Notes under the pieces: generated by a model
What the model saw: only the letters and a program-made list of their open reading frames with translations
Databases searched by the model: none
Told to the model about the DNA's origin: nothing
Program-made: the position numbers and the translations under genes
Shown: positions 12,308 through 64,000 of the stretch, piece by piece
Numbering within the stretch: the stretch's first letter is position 1
Layout: the number at the start of each line of letters is the position of its first letter
DNA from: Candidatus Iainarchaeum sp.
GTDB lineage: Archaea; B1Sed10-29; WALL01
Direction of reading: 5' to 3'
Assembly: GCA_021162685.1 (NCBI GenBank)
Contig: JAGGYF010000028.1
Span: forward strand, 9,088 to 73,087
Length of the DNA: 64,000 nt

Positions 12308-12324
12308 AAGCTGGGGTCGCATAG
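12308..12324 (+). repeat. 17-bp direct duplicate of the tRNA-Ser 5' end (AAGCTGGGGTCGCATAG)
   Basis: Identical to 12384-12400. Confidence 0.95.
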
Positions 12325-12375
12325 GCCCAAATTACATATGGGCGTTCGTAGTGGGATACAAGATCCCACTATTAG
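12325..12375 (+). repeat. tRNA-linked structured repeat element, copy A
   Basis: GCCCA-AATTACATA-TGGGC hairpin + GTTCG + TAGTGGGAT-ACAAG-ATCCCACTA hairpin + TATTAG; homologous to 32047ff, 32162ff, 63855ff. Confidence 0.85.
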
Positions 12376-12385
12376 AAAACCATAA

Positions 12386-12469
12386 GCTGGGGTCGCATAG
12401 CCTGGTAGTGCGCAGGCCTGGAGAGCCTGTTTCCTTCGGGATGCGTGGGTTCAAATCCCACCCCCAGCG
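12386..12469 (+). tRNA. tRNA-Ser(GGA)
   Basis: Acceptor GCTGGGG/CCCCAGC; anticodon arm CAGGC-CTGGAGA-GCCTG; long variable arm; GTTCAAATC; G73. Confidence 0.95.
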
Positions 12470-12563
12470 CTCTACTACTGGAGCTAATAGCGCCAAGAGA
12501 ACCAAAAGCAATATAAACAATTATTGTATAAACTTATAACGTATAATTTTATAAGGTGATTGA

Positions 12564-30761: not shown

Positions 30762-31150
30762 GCACAAAAGAGAAGTGGGGGATAGCCCATATCTATGCAT
30801 CAGCAAACAATACAATAATAACAATAACAGACCTTACTGGAGCTGAAACATTTGCTAAGTGTTCTGGCGGTATGGTTGTTGACCAGGACTCAAAGCAGGG
30901 TTCTCCATATGCTGCAATGGAAGCTGCACTAAAAGCAGCTGAACAAGCAATGGCAAAAGGAATAACAGGAGTACATGTCAAGATAAGGGCACCTGGTGGA
31001 CATAAATCAAAGCATCCTGGTAAAGGTGCGCAGGGAGCAATAAGGGCACTAACCAGGGCAGGATTGAGAATAGGAAAAATAGAAGATGTAACGCCAATCC
31101 CACATGATGGAACAAAGGCTCCTGGTGGAAAGAGAGGGAGGCGTATCTGA
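30758..31150 (+). CDS. rps11: 30S ribosomal protein uS11
   Basis: [11 protein letters not shown]; [11 protein letters not shown]. Confidence 0.97.
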
Positions 31151-31923
31151 TGAGGGTAAAGGTTCTTGAAAGCAAGCCAAATAAAGTAAAGCTTCATATA
31201 AGCGGCACAAAACCCGTTATTGTTAACTCTTTAAGAAGGGCAATCCTGGGTCTAGTACCCGCGATGGCAATAACAGAGGTGAACATATACGAAAATACAT
31301 CCGTGATGTTTGATGAATATATTGCGCACAGGCTTGCAATGATTCCACTAACAACAGATTTGAAAACATATAAGATGCCAGAGGAATGCGAGGGAGGTGG
31401 ATATAATACATGTTCTGTTGATTTGAGTTTAGATGTAAGCGGACCAAAGATGGTTTATTCCTCTGATCTCAAAACAACTGACCCAAAAGTAAAACCTGTT
31501 AGTGGAAAGATACCTATTATTGAACTTCAACCAGGGCAACGCCTGAGGCTTGAGGCAAAAGCAACATTGGGTTATCCAGAAGAGCATGTGAGATGGCAGG
31601 TTGGAAACGCAGCATATAGATATGTATTTAACGTGAAGATAGGAAAGGAATGTGAGAACTGTCTTGAATGTGTTAAAGCGTGTCCAAAAAAGGTATTAAA
31701 GAAAGGAAGTAAGAAAATAGAGGTCGCAAATCCGCTAGAATGCAATGGATGTGGCATATGCAAAGAGGTATGCAAAAAGGGCGCCATTGAAATAATACCA
31801 GACACAACATCATTCATATTCACCATAGAGACAAACGGGCAGATGAGTGCGAGGGACGCACTTAACACAGCAGTAAGTGCACTCCAGAAAAAGGTCTCAG
31901 AGATGAGAGAGATAATGAAATAA
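31150..31923 (+). CDS. rpoD: DNA-directed RNA polymerase subunit D (Rpo3) with ferredoxin-like insert
   Basis: NSLRRAI; ENTSVMFDEYIAHRLAMIPL; CENCLEC/CNGCGIC. Confidence 0.95.
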   Translation: MRVKVLESKPNKVKLHISGTKPVIVNSLRRAILGLVPAMAITEVNIYENTSVMFDEYIAHRLAMIPLTTDLKTYKMPEECEGGGYNTCSVDLSLDVSGPKMVYSSDLKTTDPKVKPVSGKIPIIELQPGQRLRLEAKATLGYPEEHVRWQVGNAAYRYVFNVKIGKECENCLECVKACPKKVLKKGSKKIEVANPLECNGCGICKEVCKKGAIEIIPDTTSFIFTIETNGQMSARDALNTAVSALQKKVSEMREIMK

Positions 31924-31925
31924 AT

Positions 31926-32044
31926 GCGGGGGTGCCGGAGCCTCCCTCGTGCCTTCATTGGCACGAAGGCTCAAGTGGTCAAACGGGCAGGATTGAGGGT
32001 CCTGTGGCTTAGTGCCTGCGCGAGTTCGAAGCTCGTCCCCCGCA
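31926..32044 (+). tRNA. tRNA-Leu(GAG) with D-loop intron (~31944-31974)
   Basis: GCGGGGG/CCCCCGC acceptor; CAGGA-TTGAGGG-TCCTG; variable arm; BHB-shaped hairpin insert in D arm. Confidence 0.9.
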
Positions 32045-32241
32045 CTGACCAAATTACATATGGTCGTTCGTGGTGGGATACAAGATCCCACTTACAGCAG
32101 GAGGGGGTGTGGAATCCGAGGGTTTCCAGGGGGAACCTGGGTTCCCCATAAAGGACGCTCTGACCAAATTACATATGGTCGTTCGTGGTGTGGCATAAAG
32201 CCACACTATTAGAGGGGGATGTGCCCCCATAAAGGACGCTC
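32045..32241 (+). repeat. tRNA-linked structured repeat element, tandem copies B1 (32045-32159) and B2 (32160-32241)
   Basis: Both start CTGACCAAATTACATATGGTCGTTCGTGGTG and end CCCCATAAAGGACGCT with differing internal hairpins. Confidence 0.9.
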
Positions 32242-32273
32242 TTCGAAGCTCGTCCCCCGCACTGACCAAATTA
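32242..32273 (+). repeat. 32-bp direct duplicate of tRNA-Leu 3' end plus flank (att-like)
   Basis: TTCGAAGCTCGTCCCCCGCACTGACCAAATTA identical to 32025-32056. Confidence 0.95.
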
Positions 32274-32320
32274 AACAACCTAGAAAATCCGAGTCCGAAA
32301 GGGCGTAAGGAGGTATTGGG

Positions 32321-32617
32321 ATGATATCAAAAAAGATTGCGAAGACAAAACTTGGAAAGGAAATAAAGAAACGCATGGAAAAGAGCAGAAAGAACAAGGC
32401 AGAAGTAAACATAGGTAAGATTGCGAAGTATACAAAAAAAGGCGATAAGGTTGTGGTCGTTGGAAAGGTCCTGGGCATGGGTAGTATAAGTCATGCTGTA
32501 ACTGTTGCTGCTCTAGCCTTTTCAAAATCTGCAAAAGAAAAGATAGAGAAGGCAGGGGGAAAAGCGATCCGTATACATGAACTTGAAGAAACAAAGGGAG
32601 TTAAATTGATGGCATGA
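32321..32617 (+). CDS. rpl18e: 50S ribosomal protein eL18 (short N-terminus)
   Basis: AEVNIGKI..VVVGKVLG..FSKSAKEKI. Confidence 0.93.
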   Translation: MISKKIAKTKLGKEIKKRMEKSRKNKAEVNIGKIAKYTKKGDKVVVVGKVLGMGSISHAVTVAALAFSKSAKEKIEKAGGKAIRIHELEETKGVKLMA

Positions 32618-32626
32618 GGTGTTGTT

Positions 32627-33064
32627 ATGAAGGTCATAGATGCAGACGGGCTTGTGCTTGGAAGGCTTGCAAGTAATGTTGCTAAGATGCTGCTCAATGG
32701 AGAAAAGGTTGTTATAGTGAACGCAGAAAAGGCAGTGATCACTGGAAGGAGAGATGATATATTTGAGAAATATAAGCAACGCATTGACAGAGCAGATAGA
32801 GCAAATCCCAGGAGAGGGCCAAAGTTTCCAAAGGTTCCAGATAGGCTTGTAAAGAGAACAATAAGGGGAATGGTTGGATATAGAACAAAACGTGGAAAAA
32901 GAGCATTAAGGGCATTGAAGGTGTATATAGGTGTACCAAAAGAGTTTGATGGTAAAGCAGAGGACATCAAAAATATAAAAAAGGCTGGTAAGGATGTTAG
33001 AGGCATTCGCGTTGGAGAATTATGTAAGATGCTTGGATGGAAAAACCCATTAGGAGGAAGATAG
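32627..33064 (+). CDS. rpl13: 50S ribosomal protein uL13
   Basis: IDADGLVLGRLAS; NAEKAVITG; RTIRGM. Confidence 0.97.
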   Translation: MKVIDADGLVLGRLASNVAKMLLNGEKVVIVNAEKAVITGRRDDIFEKYKQRIDRADRANPRRGPKFPKVPDRLVKRTIRGMVGYRTKRGKRALRALKVYIGVPKEFDGKAEDIKNIKKAGKDVRGIRVGELCKMLGWKNPLGGR

Positions 33065-33065
33065 G

Positions 33066-33491
33066 ATGGCGAGAAAGAAAGCAGATATACTGACAAAAGC
33101 AAAGAAAAAAACAGCAATAGCAAGAGCTGTGATAAAAAAGGGTACAGGAAATATACGAATTAATTCAAAATCCATTGACACAATAACTGATGAGATGGTC
33201 AGAGATGAGATAATGATTCCTTTTAAGATTGCATCAAATATATTGGGCGAAGGGTTTGAGGATAACATTGATATTTATGTTAACGTCAGAGGCGGAGGAG
33301 TAATGGGGAGAGCAGAAGCAGTAAAATCAGCAATAGCAAGAGCAATAGTAAAATACACAAATAATGATAAGTTGAAGGATGCATTCCTTTCGTATGACAG
33401 GCATCTTCTCGTAGATGATGTAAGGAGGAAGGAGCCAAAGAAGGCGTTAAGGAAAGGAGCAAGGGCAAAATATCAGAAGAGTTATAGGTGA
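33066..33491 (+). CDS. rps9: 30S ribosomal protein uS9
   Basis: KKKTAIARA; VRGGG; [10 protein letters not shown]. Confidence 0.97.
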
Positions 33492-33495
33492 TGTT

Positions 33496-33690
33496 ATGCA
33501 TATACCAGTAAGATGTTTTACATGTGGAAAATTGATAGGACATAAATGGGAAGAATTTAAGAAAAGAGTTGATAAAGGGGAGGATCCAGAGAAGGTGTTG
33601 GATAGTCTTGGATTTGATAGATACTGCTGCAGAAGAATGTTCATAAGCCATGTTGAGGTGATGGATGAGATAAAGAAATACCCAAGATAA
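33496..33690 (+). CDS. rpoN: RNA polymerase subunit N (Rpo10)
   Basis: [10 protein letters not shown]; RYCCRRM. Confidence 0.97.
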
Positions 33691-33718
33691 CATCCCTCCC
33701 CCTTCGGATCAATGAGAA

Positions 33719-33791
33719 GGGGCCGTAGGGTAGCTTGGTATCCTACCAGCTTGGGGTGCTGGCAACCCGAGTTCAAATCTCGGCGGCCCCA
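33719..33791 (+). tRNA. tRNA-Pro(GGG)
   Basis: GGGGCCG/CGGCCCC; CCAGC-TTGGGGT-GCTGG; GTTCAAATC; conserved location after rpoN. Confidence 0.95.
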
Positions 33792-33859
33792 CTGGTATTT
33801 CATGCTAATCTCCCTGGTTTGTTTTTTGAAAGCGATGGGGAGTTAAAAGAGGTGTAAAA

Positions 33860-34543
33860 ATGCCTGAAACCAAAAAGAAAAAAGTGATGAAAAAGAAAAT
33901 TACAAAAAAAATAGTGAAAAAAACTGAAGGTGAGGAAAAGCCACAGGAAGAATATCTTGTGCCAATAGATGAATATCTGAAAGCAGGTATACACATAGGT
34001 TCGCAATACAAAACAGGTGATATGCGGCCATACATATACAAGACAAGGCAAGATGGGCTTCATGTTCTTGATATAAAAACAATTGACAAAAGGATCAGAC
34101 TTGCTGCAAACTTCTTGGCAAACTATGAACCATCAAAGATACTTGTTGTTGCTGGAAGGGTATACGCAAGAACACCCGCAAGAAGATTTGCTGAGAATGT
34201 TGGGTGCTTACTATCAACAAAGCGCTTTGTCCCAGGTACATTGACAAATCCGAATAATCCAAACTTTGTTGAGCCAGATGTTGTTCTTGTCTCAGACCCT
34301 GGCGTGGATAGACAGGTTATAAGAGAGGCAAAGAAAGTCAGGATCCCTGTTGTTGCATTTTGCGACACAAACAACTTATTAAAAAACATTGACTTCTGCG
34401 TACCATTGAATAATAAGGGGAAGAAGGCGCTTGCGCTTGCGTACTGGCTTCTAGCAAGGGAACTCATGCTGAAGAAAGGGATAATATCCAACAGAACCGA
34501 TTTCAGGGAGACATTAGAGTCATTTGAGGCATCAGGTAAGTAA
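33860..34543 (+). CDS. rps2: 30S ribosomal protein uS2
   Basis: YLKAGIHIG; RFVPGTLTN; NNKGKKAL. Confidence 0.97.
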   Translation: MPETKKKKVMKKKITKKIVKKTEGEEKPQEEYLVPIDEYLKAGIHIGSQYKTGDMRPYIYKTRQDGLHVLDIKTIDKRIRLAANFLANYEPSKILVVAGRVYARTPARRFAENVGCLLSTKRFVPGTLTNPNNPNFVEPDVVLVSDPGVDRQVIREAKKVRIPVVAFCDTNNLLKNIDFCVPLNNKGKKALALAYWLLARELMLKKGIISNRTDFRETLESFEASGK

Positions 34544-63747: not shown

Positions 63748-63852
63748 GCAGGGGTACCAAAGCGGTCTAATGGGCTGGATTCAGGTAGAGGGTAGCCTCT
63801 GGAAACGTCCAGTGGCTTAGTGCCTTCGGGGGTTCGAATCCCCTCCCCTGCA
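63748..63852 (+). tRNA. tRNA-Leu(CAG) with canonical 37/38 intron (63786-63806)
   Basis: GCAGGGG/CCCCTGC; CTGGA-TTCAGG[intron]G-TCCAG; variable arm identical to Leu(GAG); GTTCGAATC. Confidence 0.93.
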
Positions 63853-64000
63853 CTGACCAAATTACATATGGTCGCTCACAGCTCCTTTCTTTTTAGAAAA
63901 AAGAAAGTAGTTGGCAGTCAAAGAAAAACTAATTTTCTCTTCTCTCCGAGAAGCATATTACTGTGTGCTTTCAGTCCTGCTATTAGGGGGGTGTGGAATC
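63853..64000 (+). repeat. tRNA-linked structured repeat element, copy C (runs off window)
   Basis: CTGACCAAATTACATATGGTCG immediately after discriminator; ends TATTAGGGGGGTGTGGAATC matching 32102-32116. Confidence 0.85.

Follow-up and report, generated by a model that had tools for sequence, protein, structure and literature searches.

What occupies the space between two identical copies of a tRNA gene's end in a core ribosomal protein operon, and how did it arrive there? The question is raised by the tRNA-Leu(GAG) gene between rpoD and rpl18e in a stretch of 64,000 nucleotides (nt), here called the window, which belongs to contig C15 of an archaeal Candidatus Iainarchaeum genome (1.11 Mb, 45 contigs, completeness rated 98%). 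An earlier note on this DNA had described the locus as a tandem array of two units, bracketed by a repeat of the tRNA end and built by iterative insertion. We consider it rather probable that the 217 nt between the repeat copies represent two non-autonomous, gene-less mini-elements that move by copy-and-paste and duplicate the end of their target gene. This reading draws on the anatomy of the array, the membership of its parts in two sequence families, their conserved hairpins, a preference for tRNA loops, empty orthologous sites, and a genome with no known recombinase gene. The array is not a chance pattern, since the 1.11-Mb genome holds 20 copies of one of its modules and 19 of the other.

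The repeat search recovered the direct repeat of the tRNA-Leu 3' end as 32 nt that are 100% identical between the two copies (32025-32056 and 32242-32273, 217 nt apart), and the two units have the proposed lengths of 115 nt (32045-32159) and 82 nt (32160-32241). The first 20 nt of the repeat correspond to T54-A73 of tRNA-Leu(GAG), comprising the T-loop, the 3' strand of the T-stem, the 3' acceptor strand and the discriminator. Repeat and unit overlap, as the final 12 nt of each repeat copy are also the opening 12 nt of the unit head. The common head of the units, given as about 31 base pairs (bp), is a stretch of 31 identical nt from CTGACC onwards (32045-32075 and 32160-32190, starts 115 nt apart). 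A common tail exists as well, but it spans 18 nt (32144-32161 and 32225-32242) instead of about 16. Open reading frames across the insert are short and overlapping (64-89 amino acids), and none represents a plausible gene. The array and the tRNA gene in front of it are composed as follows.

31926 to 32044, + strand: complete tRNA-Leu(GAG) gene, found by ARAGORN after intron removal; its 3' end is repeat copy 1
32025 to 32056, + strand: copy 1 of the 32-nt repeat, consisting of T54-A73 (20 nt), CT and the first 10 nt of module A
32045 to 32098, + strand: module A of unit 1, two hairpins, hairpin-2 allele GGATACAAGATCC (covariance model R2; alignment A3 with pair counts; the R2 match C15:41132-41192 equals window 32045-32105 and extends into module B)
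32099 to 32161, + strand: module B of unit 1, full form with two hairpins and the 3' end GACGCT (covariance model R1, match C15:41186-41248, equal to window 32099-32161; alignment A2; RNAalifold)
32160 to 32213, + strand: module A of unit 2, hairpin-2 allele TGGCATAAAGCCA (R2 match C15:41247-41307; alignment A3)
32214 to 32241, + strand: short module B of unit 2, second hairpin and 3' end only (regular-expression list of B 3' ends)
32242 to 32273, + strand: copy 2 of the 32-nt repeat, consisting of an orphan tRNA-Leu 3' fragment (32242-32261), CT and a 10-nt stub of the A head

In each unit, module A forms the left part and module B the right. Both modules also occur on their own elsewhere in the genome, and this membership in genome-wide families had escaped the earlier note. 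Module A (about 51-65 nt) is made up of a 5-bp hairpin, the invariant word GTTCG and a hairpin of 7-9 bp; a pattern search yielded 17 copies in the genome and a covariance model 20. Module B (about 55-60 nt, 19 copies) comprises a G-run, a hairpin whose loop TCCSAGGGT is conserved, a second hairpin that is G/C-clamped and free in its interior, and the invariant 3' word GACGC(T). Eight of the B copies hold an extra hairpin insert of about 60 nt in the first loop, and other modules have inserted in the loops of both A and B hairpins. As judged from the alignments, both modules are predicted to fold as two hairpins that are preserved through compensatory changes. Such changes affect 8 of the 14 predicted pairs in B (RNAalifold). 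In the A hairpins 94.8% of the cells are paired, none of 500 shuffles reached the score, and 4 of 14 pairs changed on both sides, these changes stemming from only two or three sub-families and hence from few independent events.

The two modules differ in their range. The covariance model of module A gave no match in the 30 other genomes examined for the phylum, and the exact A-head pattern was absent from 2.9 million viral contigs as well as from one-genome-per-species contigs and metagenome contigs, from which records of the own genome may have been excluded. Module B is present in 8 of the 31 phylum genomes, namely in all six of the window's family and in two of four from a second family of the same order. 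A pattern scan for B across one genome per species yielded only seven loci in five DPANN records, by position the same few genomes; the relatives matched are Candidatus Iainarchaeum, Nanobdellati (DPANN) and Micrarchaeota. B is near-identical across the two families, in which ribosomal protein operon DNA is only 67-93% identical over aligned stretches, and its copies occur in both orientations relative to genes. It also holds a D-loop-like word, TAGCCAGG in the common allele (e.g., window 32120-32135), which is one base off the archaeal D-loop consensus of this genome's tRNAs and matches the tRNA-Pro D-arm over 12 nt in one relative.

Within the array, the two units differ in the hairpin-2 allele and in the form of B, a comparison that favours two separate arrivals. 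Unit 1 is 94-97% identical to the unit behind tRNA-Leu(CAA) on contig C17, and the short B form of unit 2 recurs at tRNA-His on C26. The head variant G in CGTGGTG is common to both units and absent from all other GACC-type copies, and this may point to local homogenisation, as the sequences suggest. What holds of the proposed iterative insertion is that the array arose by insertion and is flanked by the two copies of a duplicated tRNA-Leu 3' end, but serial arrival and local duplication or exchange look alike at this locus. Repeated insertion at one site does occur elsewhere in the genome: at tRNA-Leu(CAA) on C17 the 3' end is present three times and at tRNA-Leu(TAG) on C20 three to four times, and the inserts between the copies differ.

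Both modules are concentrated around tRNA genes. Within 300 nt of such a gene, a zone that makes up 2.6% of the genome, lie 13 of the 20 A copies and 11 of the 19 B copies, and an A head is found in the 3' neighbourhood of all five tRNA-Leu genes. Of the 42 tRNA genes, twelve have a stub nearby, no more than 500 nt away, that repeats their own end exactly over at least 13 nt; the twelfth case, tRNA-Gly on C1, is doubtful. Among the seven 5' stubs, five end at G15 and two, those of proline genes, at position 17-18 in the D-loop; clean 3' stubs, present at four genes, start at T54 or A58 in the T-loop. An identical junction between the B 3' end and T54 (GACGCTC, then TTCGAA) occurs in the window, on C17 and C34, and at the tRNA-Gln gene of a relative (L041). 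Reversed B sits in the D-loops of three tRNA-Pro genes, two of this genome and one of another family. T54 is used by three module families (A-B, B, and, on C17 and C20, the insert that separates 3'-end copies one and two), which points to the target itself or to a shared enzyme as the determinant and not to one element.

The elements are mobile in evolutionary terms, with one sharp end and a duplication that runs from a loop to beyond the end of the gene. The duplicated sequences on either side of B stem from Leu, His, Pro, Gln, Cys, Arg and Thr genes as well as from the ends of protein genes, and because one and the same module is flanked by copies of so many targets, the duplications must derive from the target. 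Their length ranges from 17 to 63 nt and varies even at the same kind of site. The ends of protein genes share the architecture: on C36 the duplicated part takes in a ribosome-binding site, the ATG and five codons, and on C32 the final 12 codons together with the stop. Relatives contain tandem [target+B] arrays with a period of 94-104 nt. At the tRNA-Pro(TGG) site, microhomology (GGAAG) occurs at the inner junction. The tRNA-His site has tRNA-Ser-leader-like words after A, which seem to be flank carried over from a former site. Repeated segments also occur at two tRNA loci: at tRNA-Ala(GGC) (C20:8936-9105) a 30-nt trailer is repeated inside the insert after a 15-nt 5' stub, which looks permuted with the trailer joined to the leader, and just upstream of tRNA-Ser(CGA) (C24:35993-36134) a hairpin-rich segment of 61 nt is tandemly duplicated with a period of 81.

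In four relatives at the family or order level (L025, L026, L029 and L031), the succession of rpoD, tRNA-Leu(GAG) and rpl18e is kept and no duplication is present. The gap before rpl18e measures about 20-115 nt there as compared to 276 nt here, or 59 nt once the 217-nt repeat period is subtracted. Given the empty orthologous site and the shorter gap in the relatives, the array is a derived insertion. Similarly, seven tRNA-Pro loci in five relatives are empty at the site that is filled twice here and in one other genome, and the tRNA-His site is filled twice here and in one relative and empty in three others.

The array is also supported across its junctions by independently built contigs from three public runs of one study, possibly the assembly's own source. 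These contigs tile the array from the tRNA into unit 1, from unit 1 into unit 2 (32046-32189, no mismatch) and from unit 2 into the second tRNA end (32161-32271). As to polymorphism in unit number, which the earlier note had named as a check, a single 422-nt contig from a different study (depth 2.85) joins 32044 directly to 32160, lacking unit 1. The run from which it comes has zero depth on 32074-32141. The contig fits, if thinly, with a one-unit allele in a related population, which would be either ancestral or the outcome of a deletion between the 31-nt heads. Many copies of the modules sit at contig ends.

A census of enzymes that might mobilize such elements gave no match in the own genome to tyrosine recombinases (PF00589, Phage_integrase; control positive in 14 of 14 genomes), serine recombinases (PF00239; controls positive), Y1 transposases (PF01797, TnpA/RAYT; control positive in 6 genomes), Cas1 (PF01867; control positive in 7 genomes), reverse transcriptases (PF00078; control positive in 3 genomes) or IS110 transposases (controls positive). 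Lacking any gene of the Phage_integrase family, the genome has no XerA-type recombinase despite its completeness rating of 98%. Two TnpB-like matches (PF07282) were below the cut-off and were discarded, one being ribosomal protein L37ae and the other an unrelated frame at the end of an open reading frame without Pfam family beside a tRNA-ligase-like gene. The start of contig C26 (C26:13-490) carries seven copies of a 37-nt repeat at a spacing of 73-75 nt, resembling an array of clustered regularly interspaced short palindromic repeats, yet no Cas1 gene was found.

Measured against established classes, the elements combine features of several. As in integrase-type elements, a direct repeat of a partial tRNA gene flanks the insert (32 nt, T54-A73), but a recombinase is missing from element and genome, and there is no element-borne repeat with one attachment sequence, many different targets being duplicated. 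In the manner of a classical miniature inverted-repeat transposable element (MITE), A and B are small, non-coding and multi-copy (20 and 19 copies, 50-65 nt), but instead of terminal inverted repeats they show only the 5-nt subterminal words CGTTC and GGACG, and the target duplication (17-63 nt) is variable and not short and fixed. Subterminal hairpins at both ends, two in A and two in B, agree with the IS200/IS605 type, whereas the long duplications at most sites and the lack of a cognate Y1 transposase do not. There was neither a Cas1 that would indicate a casposon, nor a reverse transcriptase as expected for an element like a short interspersed nuclear element (SINE), nor a match to a known Rfam family.

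The junctions make a nick-anchored copy-and-paste process with template switching conceivable, and we propose it tentatively, at somewhat less than even odds. On the reading as mini-elements itself, which we hold to be rather probable, the units entered tRNA-Leu(GAG) at the T-loop, between G53 and T54, and the stretch from T54 to just past the gene end was duplicated during entry, amounting to at least 22 nt or, counting the A-head stub, 32 nt. In the proposed process, one end of the element, the 3' end of B or the 5' end of A, would be joined precisely at a break in the loop of the target hairpin. The duplication would arise from strand-displacement or gap-filling synthesis of variable extent, and the other element end would be set by template switching of the polymerase. 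Such switching would account for the variable duplication length, the fuzzy inner ends, the microhomology at inner junctions and the occurrence of 5'-short B copies (2-3) without any 3'-truncated one among the 19. The nicking and joining enzyme may be supplied in trans. With the upstream copy the tRNA gene is normal and complete, the downstream copy is left as an orphan stub, and the gene stays whole because its end is duplicated.

Several points weigh against this account. The mechanism is read from junctions; neither an enzyme nor a de novo insertion has been seen, and the searches for HUH Rep proteins (PF02407, PF04986, PF01446), which gave no match, are uninformative as the control genomes were equally silent. 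A simple single insertion would not be expected to leave the 10-nt A-head stub behind repeat copy 2, which would require an extra step such as an older truncated A or a deletion. At some loci of relatives (L073, L075), B has its 3' end at the outer edge of the duplication and not at the loop, so that the orientation rule is not absolute. Clean duplications differ more in the flank than in the tRNA part, a weak trend among the cleanly alignable cases only, and this could agree with an incoming element that already contains a copy of its target. As the relatives are at family level or further, the empty sites mark the insert as derived but give no date for it. Finally, the one-unit variant is thin: the single contig that shows it has a depth of 2.85 and passes through a repeat of 31 nt, equal to the usual word size of the assembler.

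Bracketing repeats of this kind can also be read as the attL/attR scar of a virus or plasmid that bore a copy of the tRNA-Leu 3' end, integrated at the T-loop by a tyrosine integrase and then lost nearly all of its interior, leaving about 200 nt. A direct repeat from the T-loop past the 3' end is the classic footprint of integrases; Williams is said to have described in 2002 integrase sites in tRNA genes with just such a repeat. The tendency of differences between duplicate copies towards the flanks would fit as well. For Caldiarchaeum subterraneum, a report describes a 1.8-kb recombinase-bearing insert with a tRNA fragment at tRNA-Thr as a model for how tRNA genes are disrupted (PMC3293823). 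Elements of that sort resemble the array in that the insert lies between a complete tRNA gene and an end stub and the duplication begins in a tRNA loop. However, the inserts studied here are gene-less and 50-200 nt long, 5' (D-loop) stubs are as common as 3' stubs, and the genome has no gene of the integrase family that was detected in 14 of 14 controls. That a B of 50-60 nt has copies of many different targets beside it, among them the ends of protein genes and the hairpin loops of other modules, marks the repeats as target-derived. Moreover, some 20 independent reductions to gene-less inserts of 50-200 nt with precise module ends would be unlikely, and the A pattern is missing from the 2.9 million viral contigs. 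An integrase scar is thus improbable in our view. Much the same small probability is assigned to an origin without any mobile element, in which heavily transcribed tRNA genes acquired the repeats through unequal recombination together with local replication slippage or hairpin-induced template switching, and only gene conversion between similar tRNA-Leu flanks spread the shared modules. The A heads near the 3' side of all five tRNA-Leu genes, the tandem [target+B] arrays of relatives, the missing transposase and the varying duplication lengths are what such a process would leave. It does not explain why A and B keep precise ends at unrelated sites (the D-loops of tRNA-Ser, -His and -Pro; starts and ends of protein genes), why B is near-identical in two families with operon DNA at 67-93%, or why a site is filled in scattered lineages and empty in the lineages between them.

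Could the units instead be functional RNAs, i.e., small RNAs, processing signals or a nascent tRNA intron cut from the operon transcript, with the duplicated tRNA end as a processing handle? The compensatory changes that preserve the hairpins, the position within an operon, which is taken to guarantee transcription, and a true T-loop intron in the orthologous tRNA-Leu(GAG) of one relative (G006) would agree with this, and unit 2 is predicted to fold far better than its shuffles (z-score -3.8). The suggested closing helix between CGTTC and GGACG appears in the predicted fold of unit 2, but is not robust in unit 1 (z-score -1.6); as both words are invariant, covariation could lend it no support, and they occur also in solo A and solo B copies without a pairing partner. 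The minus strand of unit 2 folds about equally well (z-score -3.4), as would be the case for DNA hairpins, copies lie in both orientations to genes, and A is limited to one genome. The proposed transcription fared better than the proposed processing. The array contains no T-run above 3 and no terminator-like site on the + strand, and no obvious promoter of their own is visible for the ribosomal protein genes downstream; therefore, read-through within the operon from S13 to RpoN can fairly be assumed. Processing received no support: no RNA run is among the 7 runs listed for the stretch, and an Rfam scan of 31000-34500 with E up to 1 matched solely a tRNA-Pro. No register of the repeat forms an archaeal bulge-helix-bulge tRNA intron (none gives H4 with flanking helices), whereas the same scan recovers the D-loop intron of the gene, and splicing is not needed because the upstream repeat copy completes the tRNA. 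A C/D-box small RNA, considered for the C17 insert owing to its TGATGA word, was dismissed, as no D'/C' boxes were seen by eye and the would-be guide is the tRNA's own strand. We regard a functional RNA as quite unlikely. The array is probably a passenger without a function of its own, which would be carried in the S13-to-RpoN transcript because it contains no terminator. A mis-joining of multi-copy element repeats behind the tRNA gene during assembly, which the many copies at contig ends and repeats as long as common assembly words might suggest, has hardly any probability left, since contigs of three runs cross each internal junction without mismatch and equivalent architectures are present in the assemblies of several other genomes.

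Returning to copy-and-paste mini-elements, the closest behaviour described so far appears to be that of Replitron-1, a copy-and-paste transposon of Chlamydomonas with a HUH Rep and target duplications of variable length (PMC10288648). As described there, Replitron-1 inserts in an orientation-specific manner, with one sharp and one fuzzy end, variable duplications and hairpins near the ends, and its fuzzy end can carry sequence adjoining the parental copy. It differs in being eukaryotic, kilobases long and Rep-encoding, and in its short duplications; the Rep searches in the present genome are uninformative. Insertion as known for SINEs appears similar, and membership in either family is not claimed. 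Like the target-primed insertion of SINEs and of long interspersed nuclear elements, which yields a precise 3' junction, a variable 5' junction, 5'-short copies and variable duplications, the elements show all four of these features, but there is no reverse transcriptase gene and no poly-A or other simple 3' tail, and the host is a prokaryote. Palindrome-associated elements derived from IS200/IS605, such as repetitive extragenic palindromes (REP) and bacterial interspersed mosaic elements (BIME), are moved by Y1 HUH transposases without target duplication or preference for tRNA loops. The elements share with them small size, lack of genes, multiple copies and imperfect hairpins near both ends, and the predicted folds and strand-specific ends would fit recognition of single-stranded DNA as in that type; in contrast, they duplicate the target, prefer tRNA loops and live in a genome without a Y1 transposase gene. 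A survey of MITEs is reportedly among the nearest literature. In the full-text literature, supplements not being covered, no account was found of very small, gene-less inserts in DPANN archaea that come with a duplicated end of a tRNA or a gene.

How extra sequence arrives in archaeal tRNA genes is an unsolved question. For the non-canonical tRNA introns of Thermoproteales, transposition has reportedly been proposed, and a census of Asgard introns leaves the route of arrival open (10.64898/2026.10.13.758758). The inserts studied here resemble non-canonical introns in their positions (D-loop 15-17, T-loop 53-59) and in that related inserts occur in different tRNA genes, but they lie outside the mature-coding path, duplicate the gene end, need no splicing and form no bulge-helix-bulge. 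The genome shows recent events at these very loop positions, with identifiable inserts, intact duplications and empty orthologous sites. Together with the relative G006, whose orthologous tRNA-Leu(GAG) has a D-loop intron and a true T-loop intron (locus L033), this makes the question of intron arrival testable. In that locus (about 100-270, reverse complement), the T-loop intron has at its 3' end a sequence similar to a degenerate T-arm, like a decayed old end duplication. Arrangements like that of the array are met throughout the genome of the window, and they may illustrate the way in which extra sequence is acquired by archaeal tRNA genes. It is a doubtful but possible further step that A and B stand for an undescribed class of very small DPANN copy-and-paste elements, joined at hairpin-loop nicks, chiefly in the D- and T-loops of tRNA genes, without a known transposase, integrase or reverse transcriptase; if this is true, decaying upstream copies would yield non-canonical D- and T-loop introns and, eventually, split tRNA genes. 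In practical terms, the repeats break assemblies, with many copies at contig ends, and hide tRNA genes from standard finders, and the stubs can pass for extra or split tRNA genes. New in this study are the module families with their covariance models, phyletic range, loop-position statistics and empty orthologous sites, as well as the negative enzyme census, the bulge-helix-bulge test and the read support of the array with a possible one-unit allele.

The position of the array between rpoD and rpl18e is supported by Pfam, which gives the operon order S13-S4-S11-RpoD-[tRNA]-L18e-L13-S9-RpoN, and a tRNA-Leu orthologue lies between the two genes also in relatives. When the raw window was scanned, both ARAGORN and Rfam missed the tRNA-Leu(GAG) gene because a D-loop intron interrupts it; upon deletion of 31944-31974 in a script, ARAGORN reported tRNA-Leu(gag). 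The bulge-helix-bulge at splice pair 31943/31974 is full (H 4/4, h 4/4, h' 3/4), and the rpoD product combines Rpb3/RpoA with ferredoxin domains. Neighbouring features and further A copies in the window are listed below.

31150 to 31923, + strand: rpoD, RNA polymerase subunit D with 4Fe-4S domain (Pfam RNA_pol_A_bac, RNA_pol_L, Fer4_9), upstream neighbour
31944 to 31974, + strand: D-loop intron of tRNA-Leu(GAG) with bulge-helix-bulge (bulge-helix-bulge scan)
32321 to 32617, + strand: rpl18e (Pfam Ribosomal_L18, Ribosomal_L27A), downstream neighbour
12323 to 12383, + strand: further A copy, lying within a D-loop-type insertion upstream of tRNA-Ser(GGA) (12386-12470), where 17 nt of the tRNA 5' end are duplicated
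63853 to 63904, + strand (C15:72940-72991): further A head, directly after tRNA-Leu(CAG) (63748-63853), interrupted by another module; the contig ends soon after

At the start of contig C34 (C34:1-60), the 3' end of a B copy runs into a matching 3' stub of tRNA-Leu, and the contig end after tRNA-Leu(CAG) and the start of C34 probably abut across another such array, as their sequences would suggest. Copies of A are also found at equivalent places in three paralogous protein-coding regions (C13:40-100, C24:1876-1930 and C31:283-343), the one on C31 with an imperfect duplication of about 45 nt.

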